From: Escherichia virus TH47
Sequence record: MT446416.1
Length of the DNA stretch: 64,000 nt
Strand: one strand, 5' to 3'
In this document: in pieces, positions 6,948 through 57,986 of the stretch
Layout: each line of letters opens with the position of its first letter
Position numbering within the stretch: position 1 is the stretch's first letter
Notes under the pieces: model-generated
What the model was told of the DNA's origin: nothing
Databases searched by the model: none
Seen by the model: the letters and a program-made list of their open reading frames with translations, nothing else
Position numbers and translations under genes: made by a program

Positions 6948-6948
6948 A

Positions 6949-10413: not shown

Positions 10414-10608
10414 TCATTTGGTGTTAAAATATTCACTGAAATGATTATAACACAAAAGCACCACGATGTTAAGCACTCTGTTGTCAAAATCATCTTGTGA
10501 TGCAGGATGCAATGACGCATTGATGTTAAAATTCACTATATCATTGTGGAATTGGTATGTGAACAAATCAAACTTCGTATGCCTTTGTTGGATATCATAA
10601 GCGTTCAT
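10414..10608 (-). CDS. hypothetical small protein
   Basis: 64-aa ORF starting 2 nt after stop of upstream gene. Confidence 0.35.
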   Translation of the reverse strand: MNAYDIQQRHTKFDLFTYQFHNDIVNFNINASLHPASQDDFDNRVLNIVVLLCYNHFSEYFNTK

Positions 10609-10609
10609 A

Positions 10610-11218
10610 TTATATATTCAACCCTTGAATGCAGGAAATAAATTCTTTGTATACATTTTCAGGTAAAGCTCTACTACCATAAAGAACACTAAATTCAGGT
10701 AACATATTCGAAATCTCTTTCGCTAAATTTATTTCATCCCTGAACATTTGCACAGGCATGATATCCTGTACCAATGATAACTGAAAGAAAAATGATTCAA
10801 TATCTTCATGTATCTCTGAATTTAAATAAATCTCTTCTGGAAACTCTTCTGTACTGTAATAATAAAATACGTCAATTCTTTTATCATTATTATTCACAAG
10901 AGGTAAATTTCTTTCGTCTCTCTTATTAATATTTGTTTTCCATGACTCAATGTTATTCGGAACCCAAAACTCATAAGGTGTCTTCTCTCCTGAAATATTA
11001 TCCAGCTTCAATCCATAATATTCACCTTCTCCGTACTTTTGCTTCAAAACAATACCTGCACTACTAATGTTTACAATGTACGGATCAACAATCCCCTCTG
11101 CGGTAAAAGGAATATTTAACTCTGAACCTTCAGGGTACTTAGCATTGAATGCATCTAATGCTTTACTTAGCACTGGAATTGCACTTGTACTGTACTTCAT
11201 TAATTGGTCTATGTTCAT
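10610..11218 (-). CDS. FamA paralog, function unknown
   Basis: motif ESFFFQLSLVQDIM. Confidence 0.6.
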   Translation of the reverse strand: MNIDQLMKYSTSAIPVLSKALDAFNAKYPEGSELNIPFTAEGIVDPYIVNISSAGIVLKQKYGEGEYYGLKLDNISGEKTPYEFWVPNNIESWKTNINKRDERNLPLVNNNDKRIDVFYYYSTEEFPEEIYLNSEIHEDIESFFFQLSLVQDIMPVQMFRDEINLAKEISNMLPEFSVLYGSRALPENVYKEFISCIQGLNI

Positions 11219-11781
11219 TTTAATTCCCCTGTAATCATACTGATATTTGAACGATACATATCGTACACTGTACTTTCTTTCTTGTGCACAATGAAATCAT
11301 AAAGATCAACGAATGCAGAAATAATAATCTTGAATGATTTATTTGGGTACGTCCCAAAATCAACTGTACTCAATTTTGCAACGAGCATAACAACAAAGAT
11401 TTCTTCTGGACTATGCAATGTACTGTACTGAAAATATTCCTCAGCACTCATGGCACTTATTGCATTTATATCTTGTGTTTGTAATGTAATATTAAGATAT
11501 TCAAAAATAGAATAAAACTCTGATTTTGTTTGTATTTTGTATTTTGTTTGTATTTTGTATTTGTCAATTGGGGTATCTCTCATGAACCATAAACGATCTT
11601 GTTCATAAAAAGGAATGATTGAATTTGGGGAAGCCAGAAATACTTCTTCTCTATCAATATCTTTTAACTCAATTTGCATACCGGATGAATTGGCAATAAT
11701 TAATTCATGAAAAATATAATGAACCTTATGTACCATCTCTTGTACTGAATTGAAATCATCTGGTATTTTAAAATTTTCCAT
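11215..11781 (-). CDS. FamA paralog, function unknown
   Basis: motif AEEYFQYSTLHSPEE. Confidence 0.6.
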   Translation of the reverse strand: MENFKIPDDFNSVQEMVHKVHYIFHELIIANSSGMQIELKDIDREEVFLASPNSIIPFYEQDRLWFMRDTPIDKYKIQTKYKIQTKSEFYSIFEYLNITLQTQDINAISAMSAEEYFQYSTLHSPEEIFVVMLVAKLSTVDFGTYPNKSFKIIISAFVDLYDFIVHKKESTVYDMYRSNISMITGELK

Positions 11782-43892: not shown

Positions 43893-44075
43893 TTAGTACT
43901 TATATATTAGGGCGAGGATGTAGTACAGTTTATATATTCTATCCTCGTACATTAGGGTGTACTTAGTACATTCTTGAAACATTGTTTTTGCGTCATCTTT
44001 TATGCCCAATGCAACGTTTGGTATATGGCTCTGTAGATGCATTGGAAGTTTCTCTATGTAGTATTCTTTATACAT
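43893..44075 (-). CDS. FamC small protein
   Basis: start MYKEYYIEKLPMHLQ at 44073-44075. Confidence 0.5.
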   Translation of the reverse strand: MYKEYYIEKLPMHLQSHIPNVALGIKDDAKTMFQECTKYTLMYEDRIYKLYYILALIYKY

Positions 44076-44739
44076 AGTTTGAAATATACGTAATGAGGTG
44101 ATGAATTTTCTTATCAGTACTGATAAGTTCCTGTACATGTTTTGTTAGTTTGTACGCGTTTTTATAGAGTCCTGGATTATCGATTACAGTACTGTACATG
44201 AATTCTTCTTCTGGTGTTAATTCTTTGTTTTGTAGTTCTTTTAGGAATTGCAGTACTGTAATAGTTTCTTCTGTACGTTGCTGTTGGAAGAAATGCATGT
44301 TATCGTGTACTTTTTCTGAACCAATGCAGTACATATCGCCGATTTGGAATTGTGCTGTACGGATATCATGGGTGCTATTACAATTCCCGAAGAAGTATAC
44401 ATTCCCGAAAGATAGAATTATAGTGCACGGGATATTATCCAGGTGCATATAGATATAGATAGATGCGTCCTCTAGTGCTTTTGTGCTGGTATTAGTACTC
44501 AATACTTTTAAATCAGTATTATAGATATTCATATAATGAACAGCTATATTATTTTTCTTCATGTACAATTCAAGGTTCTTTGATACGTTAACTCCATTTG
44601 TACTGGTTTTTTTACTTTTCTTTAGGTTCTTTAGTACATTAGGGTGATAAGTATATGCATTAGTAATAGATTCAGCCTGGATGGATTGCAAGTACTTAAA
44701 GTGCTGTAGGTATCGTTTACTTTGTGGATTGAGTTTCAT
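44068..44739 (-). CDS. hypothetical protein, paralog of 53657-54307, with FamA-like C-terminal segment
   Basis: 223 aa; shared KKNNIAVHYMN/CNST segments; C-terminal EEEFMYSTVIDNPG. Confidence 0.5.
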   Translation of the reverse strand: MKLNPQSKRYLQHFKYLQSIQAESITNAYTYHPNVLKNLKKSKKTSTNGVNVSKNLELYMKKNNIAVHYMNIYNTDLKVLSTNTSTKALEDASIYIYMHLDNIPCTIILSFGNVYFFGNCNSTHDIRTAQFQIGDMYCIGSEKVHDNMHFFQQQRTEETITVLQFLKELQNKELTPEEEFMYSTVIDNPGLYKNAYKLTKHVQELISTDKKIHHLITYISNYV

Positions 44740-44750
44740 ATTGGTTTCCT

Positions 44751-44930
44751 TTATATAGATGCGAGTGCGAGGATTTCCCTGTAGGGATTATCTTGTGTTA
44801 GTGCGTGATGAATGCAGCTATTGAGATTAATATTTTTAGTACTGTTAGTTGCTAGGTTGTAGTACTTCACGAAGGTGTCGTACATGAAACGGTCTTTAAT
44901 GCTTATGTGTTCTATATAGTATTCTTGCAT
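44751..44930 (-). CDS. FamC small protein
   Basis: start MQEYYIEHISIKDRF at 44928-44930. Confidence 0.45.
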   Translation of the reverse strand: MQEYYIEHISIKDRFMYDTFVKYYNLATNSTKNINLNSCIHHALTQDNPYREILALASI

Positions 44931-44994
44931 ATTATTCCTTAGATTTAGATTAGTTTTAGTACTTCTCTGTACGTGTACTTTTCGTTTTGTGCTT

Positions 44995-45117
44995 CTACTG
45001 TACATGATAGAAAGTATCGTTTTTATCTCTTTTGTTCCCGACTGTGTAGTACCTTTGGAATTGATTATAAATGTATCTATCTTTGTGCTGAAGTTTATAG
45101 ATATAGAATTCTTGCAT
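44995..45117 (-). pseudogene. truncated FamC remnant (40 codons)
   Basis: MQEFYIYKLQHKDRYIYNQFQRYYTVGNKRDKNDTFYHVQ then stop. Confidence 0.3.
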
Positions 45118-45125
45118 AGAGTACC

Positions 45126-45311
45126 TTAGATAGAGATTAGTTTTAGTACTTCAATATATGTGCGGTACTCTGCTTTAATTAAATTTGTACACACTGTAAG
45201 GGAACTTCTTTGTATAAGTTTATTGCCGCTTTTATACGCATTTCTCCACACATAGAGATGAGATCTTTCTGGCATAGATAGTTTATTTGTATAGTACTCA
45301 AATGTATTCAT
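45126..45311 (-). CDS. FamC small protein
   Basis: start MNTFEYYTNKLSMPE at 45309-45311. Confidence 0.45.
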   Translation of the reverse strand: MNTFEYYTNKLSMPERSHLYVWRNAYKSGNKLIQRSSLTVCTNLIKAEYRTYIEVLKLISI

Positions 45312-45321
45312 AGTATTCTCT

Positions 45322-45507
45322 TTACATATCAATAAGTTTCAGTACTGCTCTGTACGTGTACTTAGTTGTTAGTGTTTCTTTTATAGCAGTACAGAAGTAA
45401 TGTTGTTTGTCTCTAGTACTGACGCGTTTGTAGTACCATACATGGGAGTTGTGGCTGTACTTGTCCCTGTCGGATAGTTTTTGGTAATAGTAGCTTTTAT
45501 GATTCAT
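45322..45507 (-). CDS. FamC small protein
   Basis: N-term MNHKSYYYQKL. Confidence 0.45.
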   Translation of the reverse strand: MNHKSYYYQKLSDRDKYSHNSHVWYYKRVSTRDKQHYFCTAIKETLTTKYTYRAVLKLIDM

Positions 45508-45728
45508 TGTAATGTAATTAGCCTTATTATGTTAAAGTACTCGGTCCCTGGTACACCTTGTAGAATATTATCAACTACATTTATTTGGTGCAGGATGAGT
45601 ACATTCGGTGCGGATCTTTTAAGGTTTTTTTAAAGTACTGAATTCTTGTTTAAGGATGTTCTGCACATCTTTAGGGAGAATATCTAAGTAGTACTGATGA
45701 ATGTTCATAGTTTTCATATAGTACTCTT

Positions 45729-45914
45729 TTAGAACTTAAAGATGAGGTTCATGATAGATAAGTACTTAGTTTCAGGAAATTGATGTTCTATTGCATAACG
45801 TGTCGCCAGTCTGAAGTCAAATTTATAAAAGGGAGTATTCATATCCAGAGGTTCATTGGGGAATGAATCTCGGTATTGCTTGTGCAGCTTACTACAGTAG
45901 AATTCTTTATACAT
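45729..45914 (-). CDS. FamC small protein
   Basis: N-term MYKEFYCSKL. Confidence 0.45.
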   Translation of the reverse strand: MYKEFYCSKLHKQYRDSFPNEPLDMNTPFYKFDFRLATRYAIEHQFPETKYLSIMNLIFKF

Positions 45915-45915
45915 A

Positions 45916-46128
45916 TTAGTGCTCGATTAATAGGGTAAGGATGTAATAGTATTGCATACTTTCTACCCCTTGTAAAGCATTTCTTATTTTATTATTCCTG
46001 TACGAGTTCAAGAGTTTAGGACAATGTTTGAGGTTTATATAATTATTTTGTGTATACAGTAGGCTTTCTCGTAGACCTTTTGTTGGTAGTGCATCGATGT
46101 AGTACTGTTCAATGTTCATAGTGTTCAT
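45916..46128 (-). CDS. FamC-like small protein
   Basis: N-term MNTMNIEQYYIDAL. Confidence 0.45.
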   Translation of the reverse strand: MNTMNIEQYYIDALPTKGLRESLLYTQNNYINLKHCPKLLNSYRNNKIRNALQGVESMQYYYILTLLIEH

Positions 46129-46352
46129 AGAGCTACCAGTACTAAGATTTTTGATAATTGTTTATTGCTATCCCCGCAGATGTTGCTGTGTAAAATACTC
46201 GCGGTGAGGGTATCAAGTGCACTGTTCAGCATAAGGTTACATCCAGTACTGTTATGTGTTTTTAGCTCTATCAGCCACGAACTATCCGCGAGAAACTTCG
46301 CGTACTCTAGTTCAGTTAGAGTATTGATGTAGTACTTAAGTGTAGTTGTCAT
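46125..46352 (-). CDS. FamC-like small protein (first gene of the array)
   Basis: N-term MTTTLKYYINTL. Confidence 0.45.
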   Translation of the reverse strand: MTTTLKYYINTLTELEYAKFLADSSWLIELKTHNSTGCNLMLNSALDTLTASILHSNICGDSNKQLSKILVLVAL

Positions 46353-46455
46353 GTACAGTTCTCCTTATATTCCTTCTATAGTACACCAGTACTGAAAGGA
46401 TGTCAAGGGTTTTGTTTATGGGGTAAATATGATATAATGAATAAAGGAGGGAAAT

Positions 46456-47577
46456 ATGTTACCTTTTGTTAGAATGTTTGATTATGGAAATGAAGCACCT
46501 GATCCTAGTTCGGGATTTCGAATAATAAGTACAGGAGACGCATTACTATTAATTACTGAGAGTGGTGATTTGTGGGTGCGTGGTTATAACCGTTATGGCA
46601 AGTTAGGTATAGGTAATAACACCACTACCTATGTACTTGATTGGACGAAGGTTAGAAGTGATGTGAAGTTTGCGTGTGGTAGTGGATTGGTAACAGTTAT
46701 CTTTACTAAGGATAATCGTATATTGTACTGTGGTGACAAATGGTTTGAAACGGGTGGTGTTGGTAGTGCACAGATTTTCACATGGACAGATGTTACGCAC
46801 CAATTTGGGGTAGTAGATTTGAGTACAGTAAGGGATATGAAAATGTCTTATTACACGATTGGATTATTGACTACTAATAATCAATTATACGCTAAGGGAT
46901 TTGATAATAACCTATCATTTGGTGGGGTTACTAATAAGGCGACTGCTGTGTTTATTGCGAATAATGTACAAGAGTTGTATACGAGTTTAGTTAGTACTAT
47001 CTACGTTGATACAAGTGGTATATTACATCGTTGTGGCATGAGTGATAACGGTTCGTTGGGTAATAATGGTAGTTTAACTTCGTATCTAAGTTATTCACAG
47101 CCTGGTATGACGATTAAGGACATTGGAATGATGACTACGAACACTGGGTTATTATATACTGATTCTAGTGCACGCACGAGATATTTTATTGCTGGACAGA
47201 ACTTGAATAAACAGATGGGTAATGCGGCGTCTGCGAGTGCCATTACGAGTACTTACACAGAGCTTTCTGGTAGTGTTGATAAGTTTTCTTCTTTATGGGA
47301 GAATGATGGGATATTGATGACATTTGCTGTGGGTAAGAACACTAATCAGTTATTTTATGCTGGGACGAATACTTTTCATGCGAGTGGTGGTGAATCTTCA
47401 TATGCGGATACATATGAGTTAGTCCCGATGGTGTTTAATGACATACAGGAAGTGTTATGTGCACAGCGTTTATCGGTGGTACATGATTCTACGAAGTGGT
47501 ATTACTGTGGTGATGCTAATTCAATGTATGGTTTACCGGACGTAAGTACTTTTACTGAGTTACCGTTGCCCTTTTAA
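46456..47577 (+). CDS. RCC1-like repeat (beta-propeller) protein, FamD copy 1
   Basis: N-term MLPFVRMFDYGN; repeats GYNRYGKLGIGN etc.; AGGAGGG RBS; TATAAT 46434-46439. Confidence 0.8.
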   Translation: MLPFVRMFDYGNEAPDPSSGFRIISTGDALLLITESGDLWVRGYNRYGKLGIGNNTTTYVLDWTKVRSDVKFACGSGLVTVIFTKDNRILYCGDKWFETGGVGSAQIFTWTDVTHQFGVVDLSTVRDMKMSYYTIGLLTTNNQLYAKGFDNNLSFGGVTNKATAVFIANNVQELYTSLVSTIYVDTSGILHRCGMSDNGSLGNNGSLTSYLSYSQPGMTIKDIGMMTTNTGLLYTDSSARTRYFIAGQNLNKQMGNAASASAITSTYTELSGSVDKFSSLWENDGILMTFAVGKNTNQLFYAGTNTFHASGGESSYADTYELVPMVFNDIQEVLCAQRLSVVHDSTKWYYCGDANSMYGLPDVSTFTELPLPF

Positions 47578-47585
47578 TAATAGGT

Positions 47586-47615
47586 CAGTACTGAAATATG
47601 TACTGGTATTTTTTG
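47586..47615 (+). terminator. intrinsic terminator hairpin + T-run
   Basis: CAGTAC-N8-GTACTG followed by TTTTTTG. Confidence 0.55.
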
Positions 47616-47654
47616 TAAATACTATATAATTATTTTAATTTTGGAGATTTAATC

Positions 47655-48824
47655 ATGTTACCTTTTGTTAGAATGTTTGATTATGGGAATGTAGCACCTG
47701 CACCACCGAAATTTAAAAAAATACTCACCAATAACTACAACGTTGCAGTTTTAACAAGCAGTGGGGATTTATATGTACGTGGGAATAATCAAAACGGTCA
47801 ATTGGGTTTAGGTCACAAAGAAAAAGTTACTACATGGACGTTTAGTACTTCTGGTGTTCAAGATTTTTGGTTTGGTAGTTCAACACTAGTGGTTAAAAAA
47901 ACCGATGATGAAATATGGTACAGTGGACAGTCAACCTCTGTTGGTATGCCAGGGGCATCTGTATCGGGGTGGACTTCTGCCATGCCGACATTCAATACAT
48001 TAACATTACCAATATTAGATATGGCAGTTAGTAATCAGACTACAAGTGTATTACTATCAGACCGAACAATATGGAGTACTGGGGTAGGAAGTAATGGTCA
48101 ATTGGGTAATGGAACTGCGACGAACAACATTTCAGGTAAATTCGTCAAAAGTACTGTTTCGACAGAAGAAGAACAATTACCAGTTAAATTGTTTGCCAGT
48201 AATTTAATGCATGGATATGTTACCGAGAACGGCTGGTTATACTACACTGGGCAACCCAATGCAGTTAGCACTAATGGCAGTGCGGTATATAGTGTTTATA
48301 CTAGTGCTCCTATTAGTCTAAGGAATACCATTAATATCAAGTACTATACAAATAATGGAACTTCGATGGCGATGGCTATTGGTACAGATCCAAATGGTAA
48401 GACCGTACTTGCTAATGGTGGCCCTAGGATATTTGGTGCACAGGCTGACGGAGTAAATGGTCAACTAAGTAATATTAGGCCATTTGCTGTTCAAACCGAA
48501 TCATTGATGCCTCCTGGGGATTTGGTAAGTATTGCTCATAATACTTCATATTATAACCAAGTTATTGCTACAACAGATGGTATATATTGTTGCGGCTACA
48601 ACCAATCTACACACGCTGGTATGTTAGGCATTGGTACATCTACTAACGCATTAGTATATACCAAAGCAATCGTACCTGATGGTTTTGATTATAGTAAATC
48701 GCAAATGGCAGGTGAGTATAACCGTACTTATATAACTGATGGTAATTTTGTATATAGTACAGGGACAGATGTCACATATGGTGGCATTAATAGCTTAGAA
48801 TTTGTAATAGATTCACCATTATAA
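47655..48824 (+). CDS. RCC1-like repeat protein, FamD copy 2
   Basis: N-term MLPFVRMFDYGN; GNNQNGQLGLGH, GSNGQLGNG. Confidence 0.8.
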   Translation: MLPFVRMFDYGNVAPAPPKFKKILTNNYNVAVLTSSGDLYVRGNNQNGQLGLGHKEKVTTWTFSTSGVQDFWFGSSTLVVKKTDDEIWYSGQSTSVGMPGASVSGWTSAMPTFNTLTLPILDMAVSNQTTSVLLSDRTIWSTGVGSNGQLGNGTATNNISGKFVKSTVSTEEEQLPVKLFASNLMHGYVTENGWLYYTGQPNAVSTNGSAVYSVYTSAPISLRNTINIKYYTNNGTSMAMAIGTDPNGKTVLANGGPRIFGAQADGVNGQLSNIRPFAVQTESLMPPGDLVSIAHNTSYYNQVIATTDGIYCCGYNQSTHAGMLGIGTSTNALVYTKAIVPDGFDYSKSQMAGEYNRTYITDGNFVYSTGTDVTYGGINSLEFVIDSPL

Positions 48825-48830
48825 AAAGAA

Positions 48831-48861
48831 AAGCCAGTACTTGATACTGGCTTTTCTTTTT
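48831..48861 (+). terminator. intrinsic terminator (AGCCAGTAC-TTGA-TACTGGCT + T-run)
   Basis: hairpin read directly; same element after copies 3 and 6. Confidence 0.6.
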
Positions 48862-48868
48862 GTATTAA

Positions 48869-48884
48869 ATATAGTATAATGAAT
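48869..48884 (+). promoter_or_regulatory. -10-only promoter-like motif TATAATGAATA (T4-late-like?)
   Basis: TATAAT 48875-48880, ~17 nt upstream of ATG, RBS AAGGAGGG; no good -35. Confidence 0.4.
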
Positions 48885-48897
48885 AAAGGAGGGAATT

Positions 48898-50007
48898 ATG
48901 TTACCTTTTGTTAGAATGTTTGATTACGGGAATATTGCACCTGAAGCTCCAAAGATAAAGAAAGTACTGTGCGGTCGTGATAATTTGTACGTCCTCTATG
49001 GCGATGGCTCACTTTATGGTTGTGGGGATAATGCGTATTTTCAGTTAAACGTTAAAAATGCAGCAACAAGAAATACTTGGATATTAATTTCAGAAGGTGT
49101 TACTGATGTATGGGCTGGGGCGTACAATATTCTTTATCTCAAGGGTGAAGAATTCATAATGCATGGAGTTACCACACAATTAGGCACAGGAGATACTATG
49201 ATTCCGTTGGGTGGTTTGAATGTTACTTCTTCATTTCCACATATATCTAATATTAAAATGATATCAATTGGTGCAGATACAATGCACTACGTTGATGCTA
49301 GTGGTTCGATTGTTTATGGTAGAGGCATGAATGGTAACTATTCACTCGGTGGTGGGTATTCCACGGCTCAGAGTACTTTTGTTTCAGTTATTAATACCGG
49401 AGCTAATACAGTCCTTGATATATTGGGTACACAGAATAACACATTAATATTAACATCAAATGGTGAACTTCTCGGTTGTGGGAGTAGTGGGTATGGTTCA
49501 CTTGGCGTAAGTCCAGGACAGTATACTACACTAGTAAGCAGGTTAACCAGTGTTAAACTGTTTGGTGGTAACAGTACTGGTACTCTTGCTTATTCAGCCA
49601 GCAATATATACAACGCAGGTTGGCAGTATGTTGGTCAACTTGGTAACGGTATTACAACGAACACACTACTATATCCATTTGCATTAAACTCCACTACTAT
49701 TGATAGTAAGATACATAAAATATCAAAATCAAGTACAACTTCACGTGTTAATATGTACGCAACAACCGAAGGAAAGATATATAGTACTGGTGAATTTGGT
49801 AGAAATGGTTCTGGTGGTAGTTTGAGTAGATTCACCAATACACTAACTTTAGATAATTACAACCCAGAAAAATCAGCATTATACACATGTGCAAATTTTA
49901 GTATAGTATTTGATGGTAATAATCAAATTTATGCTTGTGGTTCTTTTTTGTATGTGCCAGGTCCTATTACCACGAACTCATGGTCTGCAATTACAATGCC
50001 GAAATGA
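48898..50007 (+). CDS. RCC1-like repeat protein, FamD copy 3
   Basis: N-term MLPFVRMFDYGN. Confidence 0.8.
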   Translation: MLPFVRMFDYGNIAPEAPKIKKVLCGRDNLYVLYGDGSLYGCGDNAYFQLNVKNAATRNTWILISEGVTDVWAGAYNILYLKGEEFIMHGVTTQLGTGDTMIPLGGLNVTSSFPHISNIKMISIGADTMHYVDASGSIVYGRGMNGNYSLGGGYSTAQSTFVSVINTGANTVLDILGTQNNTLILTSNGELLGCGSSGYGSLGVSPGQYTTLVSRLTSVKLFGGNSTGTLAYSASNIYNAGWQYVGQLGNGITTNTLLYPFALNSTTIDSKIHKISKSSTTSRVNMYATTEGKIYSTGEFGRNGSGGSLSRFTNTLTLDNYNPEKSALYTCANFSIVFDGNNQIYACGSFLYVPGPITTNSWSAITMPK

Positions 50008-50021
50008 TACTATAAAACTAT

Positions 50022-50050
50022 GCCAGTACTTGATACTGGCTTTTCTTTTT
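50022..50050 (+). terminator. intrinsic terminator (GCCAGTAC-TTGA-TACTGGC + T-run)
   Basis: read directly. Confidence 0.6.
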
Positions 50051-50085
50051 GATTAAATATAGTATAAAGAATAAAGGAGGGAATT

Positions 50086-51243
50086 ATGTTACCTTTTGCT
50101 AGAATGGTTAAGTACGGAAATAGAGTTCCAGTACCTGTTGGGATTAAGAAGATAAACTCTGTCGGTACTAGTCAGATGATATTGACGAATACAGGCGACG
50201 TGTATGCATATGGTCAAAACACCAACTGGAGATTTGGTAGTGGTAGTTCTAGTGAGATTAGTGGGGGAGTTCCACAGATGGTAATGCAGGGTGTATCGGA
50301 TATGATATGTCATCCCAGATGTACATTATTAATAATGTCTGATGGACGTTATCTTGCTGCTGGGAACTCTACAGTACTGGGAGGTAGTTCAGGATTGAAT
50401 TATGTAGATGTTAGTTCTAAGTTCGCTACATTAGGAACTATCAAGAAAATTGATTTTACCCGAAGGAACAGTACTTCGTATACAGTATATGCATTAAACA
50501 CTGATGGTGATTTATATGGTATTGGATATGGAAACCGTGGTCAATTGGGGTTAGGTAAAAATAATAGTTTAGGTGCATTTACGAAGATAAACACCAATTG
50601 CAGGAATTTTGTAAGTTGTTCTTATGAGACGATAGTGGCTCTTAAGAATGATAATACTGCGTGGTTCTGTGGAAATTATTCGTTTATTAGTGGTAATACT
50701 GATGTTACTACATTTACTAACCTTGGTGATACTGCAATACTTAATATCTACGGTAATGGTTTAAATGGTGAGTTGTTATACACAAAAAGTGATGGTTTAT
50801 ATTTCCGTGGTTTAGCGTCGAACCGATATGGTTATTCATTCAGTTTAGAACAGCGTGCAATTAATAGCAAGATTACATTGCCGTTTGCTTATGATGTAAG
50901 TACGTTTAAGATTCTCACAGATGAACAGACAACAACCGTCAGTGTGTGGATTTCCAATTCAGACGTTCATTATGGGGTTGGTGCAAATAGCAGTAACACT
51001 AACAGAATGGGATTCACCAACCCAACTATGCCAGGTGCTGGTTCAAACTTTACATTACAGGATTTCAGTTCAGTGCAGGGCACTATTGAGACTGTTGTTA
51101 GTGCAAGTTATTATACAACTCTTATAAACTCTAATGGGAAAGTATTTGGCAGTGGGCCTTTTGATGATGATTCTTTAACTTATTTTCCTGGGAATAATCC
51201 AAAACTGATGAACTACACAGAAATTAAATTGAATATAAATTAG
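50086..51243 (+). CDS. RCC1-like repeat protein, FamD copy 4
   Basis: N-term MLPFARMVKYGN; GYGNRGQLGLGK. Confidence 0.8.
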   Translation: MLPFARMVKYGNRVPVPVGIKKINSVGTSQMILTNTGDVYAYGQNTNWRFGSGSSSEISGGVPQMVMQGVSDMICHPRCTLLIMSDGRYLAAGNSTVLGGSSGLNYVDVSSKFATLGTIKKIDFTRRNSTSYTVYALNTDGDLYGIGYGNRGQLGLGKNNSLGAFTKINTNCRNFVSCSYETIVALKNDNTAWFCGNYSFISGNTDVTTFTNLGDTAILNIYGNGLNGELLYTKSDGLYFRGLASNRYGYSFSLEQRAINSKITLPFAYDVSTFKILTDEQTTTVSVWISNSDVHYGVGANSSNTNRMGFTNPTMPGAGSNFTLQDFSSVQGTIETVVSASYYTTLINSNGKVFGSGPFDDDSLTYFPGNNPKLMNYTEIKLNIN

Positions 51244-51255
51244 GAGAGAATAATT

Positions 51256-52416
51256 ATGTTACCTTTTGCTAGAATGGTTAAGTACGGAAACATTGCACCA
51301 TCCCCTGCTGCCATTAAAAAATTAGTTACCGGATATAACTGGGTTATGGTATTGGGTAGTAATGGTAAATTATATACCCGTGGTGCCAATTCAAGTGGTC
51401 AGTTGGGTTTAGGAGACAATACAGCCAGAACATCATGGACATTAACTGCATCGGATGTCATTGATGTATGGTGTGGTCAGTATGCCACAATGATTCACAA
51501 ATCAGATGGTACATATCAATACACAGGGAAACAATACAATGTGTGTATGGGTACATCATCTGTTAATGCATGGACTTCTATGCAAACTCTTATTAATCAA
51601 GTTAATTCTCAAGGAACAATTACAGAAATATCACTAGGAAATAACTTCATTTCAATACTTATGAGTAATGGGACCATTTGGTGTGGTGGTTATAACACAG
51701 GAGGACAGCTTGGCAATGCTTCTTATTCTAACAGTTTTACTACATTAGTAAAATCAATTATACCAAGTGGTGCGGTTCCGAAAAGGATTATTGCAGGTAT
51801 AAACATGTGTTCATTTATTGCCGAAAGTGGTAGATTATATTACACAGGTGAAGTTAATGGTGATACTAACAGTACTTCAACCGTGAGTTTTTATAATGTA
51901 TTCACATTGTCAGATAGATTACCAGCAACTGTTAGTACTATAGCATTTATAAGTACTGTTAATGATATGGTGCAAGGTATTGCAAGAAACAAAAGCACGT
52001 CAGTTGTTTCAGTGTACACAGGTGGTGATCAATTATATGGACAGGCTGCTACTGGTACTGATACTACAACAAAAATATTGACAACTGTTGTGGCAAATCA
52101 ACCACAAGGAAATATATTAGATATAGGATATGGGTACGGATATTACTCTAACTTTGTTATTACTGACACAGGTGTATACGTTGCTGGTAATAACTCAGCG
52201 ACTTCATACTATGGACAATTAAGTACAGGTTCAACTACTAACGTATTAACTTACACTAAGTCTATTACTCCTGATTTAAATTTCAATGATGTTAAAATCC
52301 AAAGTTGCTATGGTAAAACATATATGACAGATGGAAACAAAATATATTCAAGTGGTACTAACCTAGTATCTGGTGGTACTGCTAGTACTATATTTGTTGA
52401 AGATTCACCAATTTAA
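51256..52416 (+). CDS. RCC1-like repeat protein, FamD copy 5
   Basis: N-term MLPFARMVKYGN; GANSSGQLGLGD, GYNTGGQLGNAS; no terminator between copies 4 and 5. Confidence 0.8.
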   Translation: MLPFARMVKYGNIAPSPAAIKKLVTGYNWVMVLGSNGKLYTRGANSSGQLGLGDNTARTSWTLTASDVIDVWCGQYATMIHKSDGTYQYTGKQYNVCMGTSSVNAWTSMQTLINQVNSQGTITEISLGNNFISILMSNGTIWCGGYNTGGQLGNASYSNSFTTLVKSIIPSGAVPKRIIAGINMCSFIAESGRLYYTGEVNGDTNSTSTVSFYNVFTLSDRLPATVSTIAFISTVNDMVQGIARNKSTSVVSVYTGGDQLYGQAATGTDTTTKILTTVVANQPQGNILDIGYGYGYYSNFVITDTGVYVAGNNSATSYYGQLSTGSTTNVLTYTKSITPDLNFNDVKIQSCYGKTYMTDGNKIYSSGTNLVSGGTASTIFVEDSPI

Positions 52417-52422
52417 AATAAT

Positions 52423-52450
52423 GCCAGTACTCTGTACTGGTATTCTTATT
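52423..52450 (+). terminator. intrinsic terminator hairpin
   Basis: GCCAGTAC-TCT-GTACTGG followed by T-rich tract. Confidence 0.5.
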
Positions 52451-52486
52451 TGTATTAAATATAGTATAATGAATAAAGGAGGAATT

Positions 52487-53623
52487 ATGTTACCTTTTGC
52501 AAGAATGGTTAAGTACGGGAATATAAAAGTAAAGAGTACTATCCAAAAAGTTATCCTTGGTGGTGGTGGTCAATGTGTGGTAACATTACTCAGTGATGGT
52601 AGAGTGTATGGACGTGGTTACAACACTACACATGGGTTAGGTACTGGTACAACAACATTCGTAAGTGATTGGGTATTAATGGGCGATAATATTGTTGATA
52701 TCCATTCAAATGGTGTTCCTGGCACATTCCTTATCACCAAAGAAAATAGAATTTTGTATTCTGGTTGGGCGACACCAATCAATGGTACAACTGCACATTA
52801 TACACGTTTCACTGATTTAACATCAACTGTATTTGCTGCGGTGGATGTTAGTAATATTAAAACAATTACTGGAAATATTAATGCTACAATGGTCCTGTTG
52901 AATGATGGTTCTCTTTATGGTAGTGGTGCAAATACAGGTGTTATTGGTAATGGTAGAAATGTTGCATTATCAACACAAACATATGTAACTAATGATGTGA
53001 GAGAAGTAAAAACATATGGATCCATGACTACTATAACAAAAAATAACAATCAAATACTGGGTAGTGGTCTTTTATACCACGGCGTGAACGGTACAAATTC
53101 AATAATAAACACGTCTTCATATACATTACTGTACACATTACCGAGTTCTGATTGTTTTCAATTTGCATTTGATGAATATACATTTGGATATGTTGACCCT
53201 AGCACTAATACTTCTTATATAAGAGGTATACCAATAAATGGTTCATTGGGTAATGGTGTTACTAATAATACAGCAGTTACAACATGGGTTACTAAAGTTT
53301 GGAATACACCAATTGATAGTTCTATACCTAATAAATCACATACACTTAACCATGTCTCCTTGTTCAATGATGGAAACTTATGGACAACTGGTGCATCTAA
53401 TGTCGGTTATTCCAATGGTACAAATAGCACAACAGCTAATACTTGGACCAGTTCATCTAATTTACCATTCAACACCAATAACATCACAGACTATGCGTTG
53501 GGTAGTAATATTACTGTGGTGGTAATCGACTACAGGTCTATGTACATACTAGCTAACAACTTAATTGCTGGAACTACATCAACCACTTACAAATTTGAGC
53601 CATATAATTCTCCACCAGTTTAA
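52487..53623 (+). CDS. RCC1-like repeat protein, FamD copy 6
   Basis: start MLPFARMVKYGN at 52487 after AAGGAGG; track N-extension from 52373 rejected. Confidence 0.75.
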   Translation: MLPFARMVKYGNIKVKSTIQKVILGGGGQCVVTLLSDGRVYGRGYNTTHGLGTGTTTFVSDWVLMGDNIVDIHSNGVPGTFLITKENRILYSGWATPINGTTAHYTRFTDLTSTVFAAVDVSNIKTITGNINATMVLLNDGSLYGSGANTGVIGNGRNVALSTQTYVTNDVREVKTYGSMTTITKNNNQILGSGLLYHGVNGTNSIINTSSYTLLYTLPSSDCFQFAFDEYTFGYVDPSTNTSYIRGIPINGSLGNGVTNNTAVTTWVTKVWNTPIDSSIPNKSHTLNHVSLFNDGNLWTTGASNVGYSNGTNSTTANTWTSSSNLPFNTNNITDYALGSNITVVVIDYRSMYILANNLIAGTTSTTYKFEPYNSPPV

Positions 53624-53629
53624 TATAAT

Positions 53630-53659
53630 GCCAGTACTTGAGTACTGGCTTTTCTTTTA
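53630..53659. terminator. bidirectional hairpin terminator between convergent genes
   Basis: GCCAGTACTTGAGTACTGGC + TTTTCTTTT. Confidence 0.55.
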
Positions 53660-54307
53660 CATATTATATAATGTGAATGCAGTCACTTTACCAGTTGTTG
53701 TTAGTTCATTATAAAGATACTCCAAGATTCTCGCACACTCTAAGTATATCTCGATATCATCATGAATAAGTGAGTACTGGAATAGCTGTTCTTCAGATAA
53801 TTTGTATTGACTCCCTCTTAATGAATTGAGAATATCTTTCACATCATCAAGTACTGGGTAAAGTACGAAATCTTCATCATATTTTGAAGCAATAAATTCA
53901 AATCCACCACCATCAGTACTAGATATACCAATCAGTACTTTATCAATCAAGTTAATGTTTATATAACGGTTGTGATTTGGGTGAATTGAAATCTCAAACA
54001 TACGAGTACTGTTACAATCAACATCAATATACAAATATACATCATTGAATTTATAAGTTAAGCAACCATACTCAATGTAATCAGAGCAAATAATTGATGA
54101 ATTTTTTCTCGTCTCTGCGTAATGCATATTGATATTCTTTTTACGCATAAGTAATTCGAACTTTGCACTAAACTTACCACCAGTAAGATAATTAGTATTA
54201 GGACGTTTGTAACTGGCAACTGGCCTATGGGATGATGAAAAGTATCTTTTTGTGAATCGTTTCTGTTTAGTGAAATATTCTTGATAGAACTTATTTCTTT
54301 TATTCAT
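53657..54307 (-). CDS. hypothetical protein, paralog of 44068-44739, with FamA C-terminal module
   Basis: motif SEEQLFQYSLIHDDIEIY; start MNKRNKFYQEYF at 54305-54307 after GAGG. Confidence 0.5.
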   Translation of the reverse strand: MNKRNKFYQEYFTKQKRFTKRYFSSSHRPVASYKRPNTNYLTGGKFSAKFELLMRKKNINMHYAETRKNSSIICSDYIEYGCLTYKFNDVYLYIDVDCNSTRMFEISIHPNHNRYININLIDKVLIGISSTDGGGFEFIASKYDEDFVLYPVLDDVKDILNSLRGSQYKLSEEQLFQYSLIHDDIEIYLECARILEYLYNELTTTGKVTAFTLYNM

Positions 54308-54385
54308 GAGTGCCTCAATTAAATTGCTGTAAAATTGTACGTTATAAAATGAGTAAATAAAGTATAACACAAGGAGATTTTTATT

Positions 54386-55510
54386 ATGTTACCTTTCGTA
54401 TTGTTATTTGATTATGGGAACGAAAAACAAGAAAGTTCTTATGATGTTAGTGTATATGGAAACAATAACTACATTTTAAATAAACAAACTGGAAACCTTT
54501 TTGCATCTGGTGCTGCGGCATTTATGGGTGATAACACCGTTAAGTATTATATTACCCAAATCGAATCAAATGTTCATAGCTGTGAGATAGGCTTCCTATC
54601 ATCATGGATAATTAAGAAGGACAAAACTGTTTTCATTTTAGGAAACAAAAGTTCAATTGGTCTAACCGATTCGACCACATCATGGTTTGAAATTACAAAT
54701 TTATTTTCTGCTGTTCCTGAAATATGGGACAACCTATTTGAATGTAAAGTTCAATTGGGATATAACTGCATACGTGTTATGACACCACTAGGTTCAATCT
54801 ATGCGATTGGCACAAACACTTATGGTGCATTGGGTACTGGTACTACATCCTCATCAACTTCGTTCGTTAAAAGTGGTGCTGTGGATGCTGTACGCATGGA
54901 ATCAACTGAACGTTCAGTTTTCTATCAAAACAGTTCTGGAAAATGGTTTGGATGTGGTGATAACACATATGGTATACTAGGTCTAGGAACTACCGCCAGT
55001 CGTGTAAACTCATACACCGCACCAGTATGGACTAATGCAGAAGCTGTTAGCTTCTCTAACCGTGGTATCATATACAGCCTCAATGGTACTCTATACTCAT
55101 GTGGTGACAAAGTTAATGGTCAGCTAGGGGATGGATATACACAAAGCATAGACGCTGCCAGGAGCACACCATACACCATAGGAACCGCATTCCAAATTGG
55201 TAAGGCAATAACATCAGCTACACAAGCATCAGCCAACGTATTCATTGGTAAAGATAATAAGTTCTATGGTACTGGTAGTATTGCTGCTGGTATAAATGGT
55301 AGTGCTAGTGCTACATTAAGTAAAGTTACTGCGTTATCAGCATCACTACCACCTGACATTACATACAATGATATTATAACATTTAATACAGGGACCGTAA
55401 CTTTTATTCAAGCAAAAGGACAACTATATTATGTTGGTAGAAGAACTTACATAGATAATAGTTCAGACGTTACCACACAGTTCAGTTTAATTGGTGGCTT
55501 AGATAATTAA
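54386..55510 (+). CDS. RCC1-like repeat protein, FamD copy 7 (most divergent)
   Basis: N-term MLPFVLLFDYGN; GTNTYGALGTGT, GDNTYGILGLGT, GDKVNGQLGDGY. Confidence 0.8.
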   Translation: MLPFVLLFDYGNEKQESSYDVSVYGNNNYILNKQTGNLFASGAAAFMGDNTVKYYITQIESNVHSCEIGFLSSWIIKKDKTVFILGNKSSIGLTDSTTSWFEITNLFSAVPEIWDNLFECKVQLGYNCIRVMTPLGSIYAIGTNTYGALGTGTTSSSTSFVKSGAVDAVRMESTERSVFYQNSSGKWFGCGDNTYGILGLGTTASRVNSYTAPVWTNAEAVSFSNRGIIYSLNGTLYSCGDKVNGQLGDGYTQSIDAARSTPYTIGTAFQIGKAITSATQASANVFIGKDNKFYGTGSIAAGINGSASATLSKVTALSASLPPDITYNDIITFNTGTVTFIQAKGQLYYVGRRTYIDNSSDVTTQFSLIGGLDN

Positions 55511-55515
55511 AATTA

Positions 55516-55547
55516 ATCCAGTACTATAATAGTACTGGATTTTTTAT
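55516..55547. terminator. bidirectional hairpin terminator
   Basis: ATCCAGTACTATAATAGTACTGGAT + TTTTTT between convergent genes. Confidence 0.6.
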
Positions 55548-55918
55548 TATAACATACGTTTTTTACGAATAGTATTGTGGATATTTTTTAAGTAGTTCAC
55601 ACCTTTACACAACCCATAAAATACACCAGCACATACACCAAATACAGGTATCATACATGCAAACATCGTTATCAATTCCCACATCTCCATGCCATCTTGA
55701 TTCGGTCCAAGGTCAAAGATAACAACCGAAACCAAACCTGTGATACTTAGCATATAATATGCCATGAAGATAAAAAAAGAAACAATACCAACATCAGAGC
55801 GAACTGAATTTAGCATATTATATACTGGGGTTACACAGAAGTAATACAATAACCAAACCAAAGAGCCTAAACTAAACACAATAATAGTAATGATCGAAAA
55901 TATTTCACGATAACTCAT
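55547..55918 (-). CDS. FamE small multi-TM membrane protein
   Basis: 123 aa, several hydrophobic helices; last of seven tandem paralogs. Confidence 0.6.
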   Translation of the reverse strand: MSYREIFSIITIIVFSLGSLVWLLYYFCVTPVYNMLNSVRSDVGIVSFFIFMAYYMLSITGLVSVVIFDLGPNQDGMEMWELITMFACMIPVFGVCAGVFYGLCKGVNYLKNIHNTIRKKRML

Positions 55919-55919
55919 T

Positions 55920-56282
55920 TTAGTTCCTCTTACCTAAACGCTCATGGATTTCGGAAATCTTATTATACATCCACGCCATCAACTCAACGGATGCACAGAG
56001 AATAACCACACACAGTGTTAGTGAACATACCATAATACCAAATGTTATAAAATTCAAACTCGATGTTAATAATGCAACCAGCATTAGAATAAAACCAAAA
56101 TTGAATGCTGTACTCAACACAGTATATGCTGGACTATATCTCCTTTGTATTACATCATATATATTTGATAATGGTCGCTTATGGAAGTACTTCCCAATGC
56201 ACACGAATGCATTCAGTGAGAAGATAAATGTATACGCCATTACCATTAATTGACCAATAAAAGATAATTCAATATTATTCAT
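55920..56282 (-). CDS. FamE small membrane protein
   Basis: 120 aa, hydrophobic. Confidence 0.6.
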   Translation of the reverse strand: MNNIELSFIGQLMVMAYTFIFSLNAFVCIGKYFHKRPLSNIYDVIQRRYSPAYTVLSTAFNFGFILMLVALLTSSLNFITFGIMVCSLTLCVVILCASVELMAWMYNKISEIHERLGKRN

Positions 56283-56283
56283 G

Positions 56284-56655
56284 TTATCCTCGTTTGCGGT
56301 ATTTGATGCTTTGGTGCATTCTCTGAAAATGTGGAACTAATACATATTGTACGGTTTGCCAAATTACCATCAGATTATGGACAGCACCACCGAGTAGACC
56401 AAACATTAGACAGATAATTACCAGTACTGGATCACCATCTACCATACCCCATTTGAATATATGTAAAATCCATACAGTGATAAGTAGTAATAAACTAATC
56501 CAATACGTAGTAAAAAATCCCGCATGTAATTCATAATCATCAGCAATTTCATCGTATACGGTTTCCAAGAAGGATACACAGAAGAACTTGCCAATAATAA
56601 CAATTGTACTAATAAACAACATAGCAGTTAATATAATAAGTGCAATTTCCATCAC
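56284..56655 (-). CDS. FamE small membrane protein
   Basis: 123 aa, hydrophobic. Confidence 0.6.
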   Translation of the reverse strand: MMEIALIILTAMLFISTIVIIGKFFCVSFLETVYDEIADDYELHAGFFTTYWISLLLLITVWILHIFKWGMVDGDPVLVIICLMFGLLGGAVHNLMVIWQTVQYVLVPHFQRMHQSIKYRKRG

Positions 56656-56966
56656 ATCCCTCGTTTACGCTTTTGATTGCGTCTAAATTCGGTTAGCCCA
56701 CGAATAATCGGTGGCATCAGACTACATAAAAAAATAACAGTTGTTGGCAATAACATGAAGTCAATCATTGCTGTATTAACAGGTGGATCACATACCAAAT
56801 AATACAAACACGTAATACTAATTATGGTTGACCCAATAAAAAGAATACAAAATTCTTTTATCTGTTTTTCAACATAATCAAACATCTTCAATACAAATAA
56901 AAATCCAACCCAACACATAATAAAATAGAATGAATACAACGTGTAAATCAATGTTACGATATCCAT
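56652..56966 (-). CDS. FamE small membrane protein
   Basis: 104 aa; ATGA overlap. Confidence 0.6.
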   Translation of the reverse strand: MDIVTLIYTLYSFYFIMCWVGFLFVLKMFDYVEKQIKEFCILFIGSTIISITCLYYLVCDPPVNTAMIDFMLLPTTVIFLCSLMPPIIRGLTEFRRNQKRKRGM

Positions 56967-57304
56967 TAGTACCTCGCATCAGGAACTTTAGAACGCAATT
57001 TATGAACGGCTGGGATCAACAACAAACTTACATATGCAATAGTTGAACCCCAATAGAATACTAATATAATTGGTTCACCATTAGAACGTAAACCTCTACT
57101 AATCATTGAGTAGTGAATAATAGGCATAAACATCGCCATAAAAAACCATGCGTGTAATTTTAATTGCAGCATGTTATCAGAGATGAATACTGAAATTGGT
57201 CGTTTAAAGAACCACATCAGAAAGTAGAACCCAGCACTAACAATATAGTACATAGTACTAACTTTCATATACCACGGCATTAAGTGTAAAAAATATTCCA
57301 TCAT
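56966..57304 (-). CDS. FamE small membrane protein
   Basis: 112 aa. Confidence 0.6.
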   Translation of the reverse strand: MMEYFLHLMPWYMKVSTMYYIVSAGFYFLMWFFKRPISVFISDNMLQLKLHAWFFMAMFMPIIHYSMISRGLRSNGEPIILVFYWGSTIAYVSLLLIPAVHKLRSKVPDARY

Positions 57305-57648
57305 TCCTCCGGTATCTTGTTTCGAAGTTCAATCATAACACAACAAAGTTTAATGAACAAGTAAAAAACTACACATATCATACCTATGGTTCCATAAACG
57401 ACTGAAAAAGCTGGTAGTGCTTTTCCGGCGAGAACAGCCACAACACATGCTATAAATGTTGATGCAAACAATGATTGATTAATGAAAGAATTCATAAAAT
57501 CTTCACCATTACGCTTATAGAATTGTCGTTTAAAATACCATCCTAGAAACATAACTACCCAAAATGTTACATAACCTGTTAGAATAATCCCTGCAATTGA
57601 ATGTGCAACAGAACTACTCTTTAAAAACTCAAGATAAGATTCAAACAT
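57301..57648 (-). CDS. FamE small membrane protein
   Basis: 115 aa; ATGA overlap. Confidence 0.6.
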   Translation of the reverse strand: MFESYLEFLKSSSVAHSIAGIILTGYVTFWVVMFLGWYFKRQFYKRNGEDFMNSFINQSLFASTFIACVVAVLAGKALPAFSVVYGTIGMICVVFYLFIKLCCVMIELRNKIPEE

Positions 57649-57986
57649 TAGAAGTCCCCACGAATTTTTGCTCTACCATTAATGATGAGATTAAACAAGT
57701 ATATCAGCACCCAAATTAGTAATCCAAGGAATACAATATATTGTGATATTGAGTTCAACTGTGGATTAGCACAATAAATTAAGTGTGCGATAAGACCAAC
57801 AATTGCAAACATACCTTGGATAATAGTGAAAAGAAGTAGTGAAATGTTTCCATCAGGATACAGTTTGAAAACGATTTTCTTTTTAAAATACCATAGTACT
57901 ACAACTAGTGCATGATAAAAGAAAAAACCAAACAGATAAATCAAAGTAATACTAAGCATTGTATCTGAATTAAAAAACTCAAGCAT
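57648..57986 (-). CDS. FamE small membrane protein
   Basis: 112 aa; first of seven. Confidence 0.6.
   Translation of the reverse strand: MLEFFNSDTMLSITLIYLFGFFFYHALVVVLWYFKKKIVFKLYPDGNISLLLFTIIQGMFAIVGLIAHLIYCANPQLNSISQYIVFLGLLIWVLIYLFNLIINGRAKIRGDF

Follow-up and report, generated by a model that had tools for sequence, protein, structure and literature searches.

A shuffled array of tagged RCC1-like propeller genes in Escherichia virus TH47, an Asteriusvirus jumbo coliphage, and its possible role as a store of virion accessory adhesins

Layout and identity of the array

The 64 kb stretch analysed here (the window) comes from Escherichia virus TH47 [MT446416.1], an Asteriusvirus jumbo coliphage of the 121Q/PBECO4/G17/phAPEC6 group (Rak2-like), and contains an array of seven intact plus-strand open reading frames (ORFs) of 369–389 amino acids (aa) that encode RCC1-like proteins. 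The surroundings are mostly minus-strand: outside the array, that strand carries every ORF of 110 aa or more in the window, a few short ones excepted. In a multiple alignment, copies 2–7 match copy 1 over their full length at 21–26% identity, with 14 invariant columns, seven of which fall within the first 12 residues (M1, L2, P3, F4, Y10, G11 and N12), a segment that we refer to as the tag. ORFs and alignment agree with a first-pass annotation of this DNA, which had described seven diverged paralogs on the strand opposite to their surroundings; a minus-strand ORF of 237 aa inside the array was absent from that annotation. The genes of the array are as follows.

46456..47577, plus strand: copy 1, RCC1-like propeller of 373 aa, tag MLPFVRMFDYGN
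47655..48824, plus strand: copy 2, 389 aa, 92.0% identical to phAPEC6 gp003 (virion mass spectrometry)
48898..50007, plus strand: copy 3, 369 aa, identity of 94.6% with phAPEC6 gp009, a protein detected in virions by mass spectrometry, and of 93% with 121Q gp236
50086..51243, plus strand: copy 4, 385 aa, tag MLPFARMVKYGN, followed by a 12-nucleotide (nt) spacer to copy 5 with no hairpin
51256..52416, plus strand: copy 5, 386 aa, the copy modelled with AlphaFold2
52487..53623, plus strand: copy 6, 378 aa, weakest Pfam match of the seven, 93% identical to the vB_Ec-M-J and WPEC5 orthologues
53657..54370, minus strand: embedded ORF of 237 aa between copies 6 and 7, phrog_34359, not RCC1-like
54386..55510, plus strand: copy 7, 374 aa, with the tag variant MLPFVLLFDYGN and orthologues at 98% identity in vB_Ec-M-J and WPEC5

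The start of copy 6 was taken as the ATG at 52487, the ORF listing extending to a GTG at 52373. In G17 and 121Q the array ends at a homologue of the embedded ORF, and copy 7 sits past this usual boundary, as it does in vB_Ec-M-J and WPEC5. The embedded ORF and a second minus-strand ORF (44068–44739, phrog_29152) are weak paralogues (22% identity, E-value (E) 5e-4), one lying near each end of the array.

Far from being an undescribed system, as had been suggested at first pass, the array is a known feature characteristic of the genus, already annotated and already covered by published mass spectrometry of virions. The same locus, lying between an array of small ORFs and an array of membrane-protein genes, has the same flanks in vB_Ec-M-J, ELP-22, G17, WPEC5, 121Q and phAPEC6, and outside the array these flanks are ~91% identical to G17 and BAU.Micro_ELP-22. 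Multiple RCC1-like copies have been noted in 121Q and PBECO4 [PMC5259590], eleven were counted in phAPEC6 [PMC7247149], and the array genes are among the most divergent between otherwise near-identical phages in the fEgEco12 comparison [PMC13070987]; the papers on Sharanji and UE-S1 make no mention of these genes. Two further papers retrieved as RCC1 literature (PMC10218006 and PMC12906663) were rejected, 'RCC1' being a locus or strain name there. The term 'T4-type phage' used at first pass is also imprecise for an Asteriusvirus, which has only T4-like core genes and TATAAATA late promoters in common with T4; in phAPEC6 the T4-like features are a gp43-like polymerase, a prohead protease, a late sigma factor and TATAAATA before head and baseplate genes.

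All seven proteins occur verbatim in public collections, six of them on a 352,450-bp NCBI contig and copy 6 on a 355,685-bp ENA contig. Each copy falls in a 90%-identity cluster with other public members, and six of these clusters hold named phages. Copy 1 has relatives of at least 90% identity in ph0011, EJP2, UE-S1, vB_Ec-M-J and fEgEco12; close relatives of copy 4 are confined to phage-sized contigs within E. coli assemblies. The candidate status of copies 1 and 4 as unique cassettes, which arose from a six-phage panel, was rejected after exact-sequence look-up found both elsewhere. Homologues are labelled in GenBank as 'regulator of chromosome condensation', 'putative DNA condensation protein', 'HERC1' and similar. 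The three copies scanned with PHROG hidden Markov models match phrog_4219 (copy 1, E 6e-56; copy 5, 2e-69; copy 7, 9e-41), a family that PHROGs places in the category 'DNA, RNA and nucleotide metabolism', and copies 2, 3, 4 and 6 cluster with annotated array members.

Propeller fold of the encoded proteins

All seven copies match the Pfam family WD40_RLD (E 3e-8 to 5e-25), every match lying under the 150-bit gathering score, and matches to RCC1 or RCC1_2 are above gathering in copies 2, 3, 4, 5 and 7 and below it in copies 1 and 6. A profile of the seven copies retrieves UVR8 (E 1e-32) and RCC1 (1.7e-22) from PDB sequences, and also HERC1 and RPGR. Copy 5 was modelled with AlphaFold2 from an alignment of 33 sequences; the model has a predicted local distance difference test score (pLDDT) of 85.9, a predicted template modelling score (pTM) of 0.87 and 29 strands. 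Its best Foldseek match is UVR8 (4dnu; E 3.5e-24, query TM-score (TMq) 0.79, full-length), followed by RPGR, HERC2 and RCC1, with UVR8 and RPGR ahead of RCC1 proper. The model and the profile searches agree with the proposed RCC1-like seven-bladed propeller, which the predicted structure confirms for copy 5 and full-length alignment makes probable for the other six copies. The repeats on which the proposal was founded are indeed present in each copy: the canonical G-x-N-x-x-G-Q-L-G occurs only 1–3 times per copy rather than in every one of seven blades, and a looser pattern (G-x5-[LFIMV]-G-x-[GNA]) 2–4 times.

The likeness to eukaryotic RCC1-like domains (UVR8, RPGR, HERC1/2 and RCC1) consists of seven blades, GxLG-type repeats and TMq values of 0.65–0.79. 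The phage proteins differ in sequence, at 12–23% identity and with the canonical motif only in some blades, and in setting, which lacks the Ran, histone or UV-B context of their eukaryotic counterparts; to our knowledge the bacterial host has neither Ran nor histones. They are proteins of 39–42 kDa with a pI of 4.9–8.4, 20–28 Lys+Arg per ~380 residues (~6%) and 36–45% Ser, Thr, Asn and Gly (S/T/N/G). An S/T/N/G-rich composition with low Lys+Arg is typical of fibre and adhesin domains.

An N-terminal tag shared with unrelated proteins

The 12-residue tag (MLPFxRMxxYGN, with variants MLPF(V/A)(R/L)(M/L)xxYGN) is present in 7/7 copies in the window. The wider count is 76/76 junctions in seven phages, the junctions themselves having been defined by a search for the tag pattern. 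Residues 1–10 have a pLDDT of ~48 in the model of copy 5, in which the first strand begins at residue 20, and of 47 in the model of a second tagged protein (the Gly-rich protein described below), and both models predict that the tag is disordered. The possibility that it forms the closing strand of the propeller was rejected, as it has low model confidence, precedes the first strand and occurs on proteins that are not propellers.

The best represented of these is a Gly-rich protein of 245 aa starting MLPFGRMIKYGN, with the same tag and junction, which lies within the arrays of G17, 121Q (gp243), WPEC5, phAPEC6 and others. Its gene is single-copy, 92–100% conserved and part of most Asteriusvirus arrays (18 records), though not of the one in the window. 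It occupies 10574–11311 in one fetched Asteriusvirus locus and 7325–8056 in phAPEC6, where the full-length ORF at 7325 is unannotated in the record. A relative in the jumbo phage CBB (gp144), annotated 'structural protein', starts MLPFSPLIVYGN. A 234-aa CBB protein starting MLPFSRMLEYGN has a Laminin_G_3/ConA-like lectin domain (E 2e-12, above gathering), and GAP32_002, a 'virion structural protein' in RefSeq, starts MLPFARIFRYGD and has a weak match to the same Laminin_G_3/ConA-like fold. The tagged CBB lectin-like protein was turned up by a scan of IMG/VR with tag DNA; that scan returned only 121Q, CBB and three chance matches, and gives no wider census.

A second tag, M(L/I)E(L/M)L.., is found on three RCC1-like virion proteins of phage W70 and on most members of the Gly-rich family. 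Two tags and at least three body folds thus occur in several combinations, and each body type has members reported or annotated as virion proteins; the tag is therefore a module apart from the propeller. The model of the Gly-rich protein (pLDDT 91.9) has as its best PDB folds a fibre of cyanophage Pam3 (probability 0.99), the Bxb1 tail tip and the glycine-rich domain of ALK, and a search of its sequence against PDB found nothing; these fold matches may be taken as supporting evidence for a fibre-like body, not as proof.

Cassette shuffling among related phages

The 64 array genes of six phages fall into 26 groups at a threshold of at least 60% identity, with an order and content peculiar to each phage. 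The window copies belong to seven different groups. Copies 5–7 have counterparts of 93–98% identity in the three cassettes that close the arrays of vB_Ec-M-J and WPEC5, and copy 2 shares 80% identity with a G17 gene. Between phages whose flanks are ~91% identical, cassettes range from 98% identical to absent. Copy number varies from 7 in the window to 14–15 in WPEC5. Compared with the arrays of 121Q (gp234–248), PBECO4, phAPEC6 (gp001–010 and gp549–551), G17, vB_Ec-M-J and WPEC5, that of the window shares the locus, flanks, tag and junctions with hairpin and promoter-like element, but has 7 copies against 10–15 elsewhere and its own cassette combination and order. Several copies in 121Q (gp234/235, 237 and 239/240) and ELP-22 are annotated as split or truncated, which suggests frameshifts or decay, and that single copies are dispensable.

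The junctions between cassettes are conserved to a degree that the bodies are not. The sequence ATGTTACCTTTT is identical in 65/65 junctions, synonymous sites included, and a hairpin and a promoter-like element are each present in ~50/76. Tag variants track the phage genome, not the cassette: copy 5 has ARMVK where its 93–94% identical orthologues in vB_Ec-M-J and WPEC5 have VRLFD or VRMFD, and copies 2 and 3 have VRMFD where phAPEC6 gp003 and gp009 have GRMIK and ARMVK. The variants thus suggest that the tag undergoes recombination or gene conversion, or that it co-evolves with a phage-encoded partner. The short junction upstream of copy 5 (51244–51255, GGAGAGAATAATT-ATG) matches that of a different WPEC5 cassette (upstream of 19318), the WPEC5 orthologue of copy 5 having a different junction; this is consistent with deletion or recombination at the tag.

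Signals at the junctions

Copies 1, 2, 3, 5, 6 and 7 each have at their 3' side a hairpin of the form GCCAGTAC...GTACTGGC with a T-run behind it (-8.1 to -19.5 kcal/mol), and a 24-mer TATAAT/AAGGAGG element, ATATAGTATAATGAATAAAGGAGG, lies upstream of copies 1, 3, 4 and 6. A search with ATATAGTATAATGAATAAAGGAGG gave four matches at no more than three mismatches, compared to none in 100 shuffles. The signals in and next to the array are as follows.

46406–46378, minus strand: TTGACA-17-TACTAT site in the divergent region 5' of copy 1, directed into the small-ORF array
46427..46450, plus strand: promoter-like element with ribosome-binding site (RBS), ATATGATATAATGAATAAAGGAGG, 5' of copy 1 in the divergent intergenic region
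47584..47607, plus strand: terminator-like hairpin with T-run, 3' of copy 1, -8.1 kcal/mol
48833..48851, plus strand: terminator-like hairpin GCCAGTACTTGATACTGGC with T-run, 3' of copy 2, -19.5 kcal/mol with flanks
48869..48892, plus strand: promoter-like/RBS element, 5' of copy 3, exact consensus
50022..50040, plus strand: terminator-like hairpin, 3' of copy 3
50057..50080, plus strand: promoter-like/RBS element, 5' of copy 4, one mismatch
52420..52444, plus strand: terminator-like hairpin, 3' of copy 5
52459..52482, plus strand: promoter-like/RBS element, 5' of copy 6, exact consensus
53630..53649, plus strand: hairpin, 3' of copy 6, scoring on either strand
55515..55541, plus strand: terminal hairpin (12-bp stem) with T-run, 3' of copy 7, -15.7 kcal/mol

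Because it scores on both strands, the hairpin after copy 6 could also terminate the convergent minus-strand ORF at 53657–54370. The Shine-Dalgarno contexts of copies 2, 5 and 7 differ from the ATATAGTATAATGAATAAAGGAGG type, and a good -35 hexamer was not seen by eye in the promoter-like element. With six hairpins followed by a T-run and four near-identical promoter/RBS elements, the description of the genes as cassettes bracketed by hairpin and RBS holds. Their independent expression, read from the same motifs at first pass, is a weaker claim: it is suggested by motifs only, and the promoter-like element is unlike the late type of structural genes.

In the 130–180 kb region of phAPEC6, TATAAATA motifs (one of them a CATAAATA variant) lie 25–50 nt 5' of the major head protein gene and of several genes of the head, tail and baseplate region. 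The gp224 gene of the same phage is preceded by a perfect TTGACA-17-TATAAT, and its record annotates a 'sigma factor for late transcription'.

Occurrence in virions and homologues outside the genus

The published phAPEC6 study detected eight of the RCC1-like copies in the virion by mass spectrometry [PMC7247149]; the detected proteins include gp003 and gp009, the orthologues of copies 2 and 3. Virion mass spectrometry, which had been named as a check on the array, is thus positive in published work on orthologues. Other members of the family have also been found in virions, namely GAP32 gp001 [PMC5259590], W70_237–239, assigned to phrog_4219, and CB7_37, which is marked 'MS/MS confirmed' (tandem mass spectrometry). 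The counts listed for the three W70 proteins are 141–233, against 311 for the tail sheath in the same table, the column headers not being visible. A literature search on the localisation and function of phage RCC1-like proteins yielded mass spectrometry lists and passing remarks only, and the JP4 supplements gave no match.

Homologues in the Vequintavirinae (W70_237–239, 4MG gp038, and CB7_37 / phiTE_242) resemble the array genes in encoding an RCC1-like propeller of ~40 kDa, in their detection by virion mass spectrometry and in their arrangement as tandem or terminator-bracketed single genes. They differ in their N-terminus (MLEML.., or MFPIP../MIPFA..), in number (1–3 copies against 7–15) and, in some cases, in lying at the end of a tail-fibre module. 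Both 4MG gp038 and CB7_37 close a tail-fibre/baseplate module, each as its own unit between terminators, and are the only homologues with this adjacency, which is not seen in the window. In 4MG gp038 the N-terminus (MFPIP..) is followed by the RCC1-like domain and then by two C-terminal Big_2 Ig-like domains (E 5e-23), a domain type known from exposed virion surfaces. Copy 5 also matches phrog_11922 'tail protein', RCC1-like domains occur within a protein of Pseudomonas phage Littlefix annotated as tail fibre, and some bacterial homologues have Ig-like, PKD, T9SS-sorting or cell-wall-anchor domains.

A possible library of tag-docked adhesins

We propose, with a probability of roughly one in two, that the array encodes accessory adhesins or decoration proteins of the virion, docked by their tag and exposed at the surface, and that it forms a shuffled library of them. 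Each ~40 kDa protein would consist of a 12-residue N-terminal address peptide and a seven-bladed RCC1-like binding propeller, the tag docking the protein at a common phage-encoded site on the exterior of the particle; candidate sites are the capsid-hexamer fibres and the three rings of 'hairy' tail fibres of phAPEC6/121Q. Because all paralogues carry one tag, they may compete for identical sites, and each virion would then show a mixture of propellers, accessory adhesins whose ligands would lie on the host surface or in the environment. A homology patch for the swap, loss and gain of cassettes between phages would be provided by the conserved junction, which comprises the terminator, the promoter-like element, the RBS and the first 36 coding nt, and exchange at this patch would diversify the repertoire.

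A role in binding specificity, as adhesin or decoration, had already been put forward at first pass, and it is the best-supported reading in view of the virion mass spectrometry of orthologues, the tail-module position and Ig fusion in Vequintavirinae, and the presence of the tag on lectin- and fibre-like proteins. The bodies involved are all of a binding type: a propeller here, a ConA-like lectin and a Gly-rich fibre-like protein in tagged relatives, and a Big_2 fusion in one homologue.

Several observations weigh against it. The array is remote from any tail module, its neighbours being small unknown ORFs, membrane proteins and a sigma-70-type promoter, and its promoter-like element is of the TATAAT type, not the TATAAATA late type found upstream of the phAPEC6 head and baseplate genes. 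Peptide counts in phAPEC6 were low, with 1–5 unique peptides per paralogue [PMC7247149]. We found no experimental placement of these proteins on or in the particle in the literature, and the main text of a whole-virion cryo-electron microscopy study of phiTE does not mention the RCC1-like homologue. The particles of phAPEC6 and 121Q have an inner body of unidentified composition, which makes an internal location possible. The N-termini of the Vequintavirinae proteins (MFPIP../MIPFA..) resemble the tag only loosely, the match of the Gly-rich model to the Pam3 fibre has a TM-score of only 0.30, and the structure model was made for copy 5 alone.

A more general form of the proposal, which we advance only tentatively and consider less probable than the reading of the array itself, is that 'tag-and-dock' display is common to the Rak2-like jumbo phages, with a second tag serving in Vequintavirinae. 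A peptide of ~12 residues would load unrelated binding modules from a recombining library (RCC1-like propellers, Gly-rich fibre-like domains and ConA-like lectins) at common virion sites to give each particle a stochastic mix of adhesins, the array would be the cassette store, and the tag alleles VRMFD and A/GRMVK would address different sites. There is precedent for attachment of this kind, as the glycine-rich adhesin gp38 of T2/S16 and the 'conserved peptide' second receptor-binding proteins (RBPs) of Klebsiella podophages dock via a short N-terminal region. The likeness is that of a small separate binding protein attached to a fibre or adaptor by its N-terminus, and one of the tagged bodies is Gly-rich like gp38. 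The differences are that the Gly-rich protein has no match to PDB sequences, that S16 gp38 lies outside the top 50 fold matches of its model, that the propeller is no known tip of a receptor-binding protein, and that the array does not lie beside fibre genes.

Alternative explanations

The strongest competitor, which we nevertheless consider unlikely, is that the products are packaged internally, as inner-body or ejected proteins. Here the tag would be a capsid-targeting sequence of the kind found on T4 internal proteins, and the propellers, taken up by the prohead, would enter the cell together with the DNA, where they would bind and neutralise host (e.g. defence) factors; their diversification would reflect an arms race. 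The T4 internal-protein (ip) locus reportedly has a closely similar anatomy (Repoila/Krisch; Black): one short N-terminal peptide is conserved on proteins that are otherwise diverged or unrelated, the cassettes are hypervariable, their junctions are conserved and the products are virion-associated. The presence of a T4-like prohead protease and late sigma factor in the phage is in keeping with this, as are the unidentified inner-body proteins of phAPEC6/121Q, the low abundance of the orthologues in virions, and the position of the array among early-type small genes without the TATAAATA late promoter. The tag itself fits less well, as no conserved (L/I)-x-E cleavage motif or Glu follows it within the first ~25 residues (position 13 being E, V, I or R), and the same tag is found on a ConA-like lectin and a Gly-rich fibre-like protein. 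The proteins also differ from the small basic internal proteins in being 40 kDa, near-neutral, S/T/N/G-rich and of a binding fold. In Vequintavirinae, moreover, homologues belong to the tail-fibre module, and one of them has Big_2 domains; a folded propeller would presumably also need unfolding for passage through the tail tube.

It is improbable that the proteins are intracellular, non-structural binders of host factors and that their detection in virions reflects carry-over. Propellers are generic protein-binding scaffolds, and the low phAPEC6 peptide counts, the position of the array outside structural modules and its non-late promoter-like element would all be compatible with such a role. 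Against this, virion detection comes from at least four phages studied in different laboratories (phAPEC6, GAP32, W70 and CB7), the counts listed for W70 (141–233) compare with 311 for the tail sheath in a table whose column headers were not visible, and the tag is common to other proteins annotated as structural.

The least probable explanation is the one favoured by the database labels. A DNA-condensation or inner-body scaffold organising the 350-kb genome in the head is implied by GenBank and PHROG labels and draws on the RCC1 name and homology, on virion association, and on the observed inner body together with the phAPEC6 authors' own suggestion; but the proteins lack basic DNA-binding character (see the pI and Lys+Arg content above), they are structurally closer to UVR8, RPGR and HERC than to RCC1, and a copy number that varies from 7 to 15, with split copies in 121Q and ELP-22, is odd for a core packaging component. 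Histones and a tail at the N-terminus are what RCC1 uses to contact chromatin, and neither is present here. The related jumbo phage CBB is without an RCC1-like protein according to its authors [PMC5259590], and the inner-body or DNA-condensation role was a proposal of the phAPEC6 study [PMC7247149]. Because charge, variable and split copies, and absence in CBB misfit a core DNA organiser, the label looks unfounded, and it appears to be a name transfer from eukaryotic RCC1.

Other features of the window

On the minus strand at 43893–46352 lies a tandem series of small ORFs (61–84 aa), weak paralogues with an N-terminal (E/K)YY.x.L and a C-terminal ..IL.LI; WPEC5 has ~20 such ORFs in a row (2966–7566 of the fetched locus). 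Directly past the array, also on the minus strand (55547–57986), are seven tandem ORFs of 104–123 aa, which by eye look like multi-pass membrane proteins; the one tested belongs to phrog_27618, and this series holds the same position in all relatives compared.

The motif CAGTACT occurs 246 times in the window compared to 8.3 +/- 3.1 in shuffles, AGTACT 269 times compared to ~21 expected, and CAGTACTG 65 times compared to 0.66. AGTACT is dense at, for example, 23.5–46 kb and 1–8 kb and sparse at 8–16 kb. Intergenic DNA makes up 16% of the sequence but holds 42% of the sites, which are often flanked by T-rich DNA on the 5' side and by A-rich DNA on the 3' side. It makes up the stems of the array hairpins and adjoins late promoters in phAPEC6. 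A 5–23-fold excess was found in every Rak2-like locus fetched (Asteriusvirus, CBB and GAP32), whereas four Vequintavirinae loci contain none against ~17 expected in total. Five palindromic hexamers (CCATGG, CAGCTG, AGGCCT, AGCGCT and ACCGGT) are absent from the window against ~6 expected for each, as is CCCGGG (1.8 expected), which looks like restriction-site avoidance.

Significance

The array itself is ordinary for the genus, and the value of this analysis lies in correcting the record and in a sharper, testable question. The interest that is left concerns the function of the proteins, a database label that is probably wrong, and the modular N-terminal tag. If docking by the tag is true, it would explain part of the 'hairy' decoration on particles of the 121Q/phAPEC6 type, would offer a short peptide handle for the display of foreign binding modules on jumbo phages, and would identify a determinant of host range or adhesion that differs between near-identical therapeutic phage candidates.

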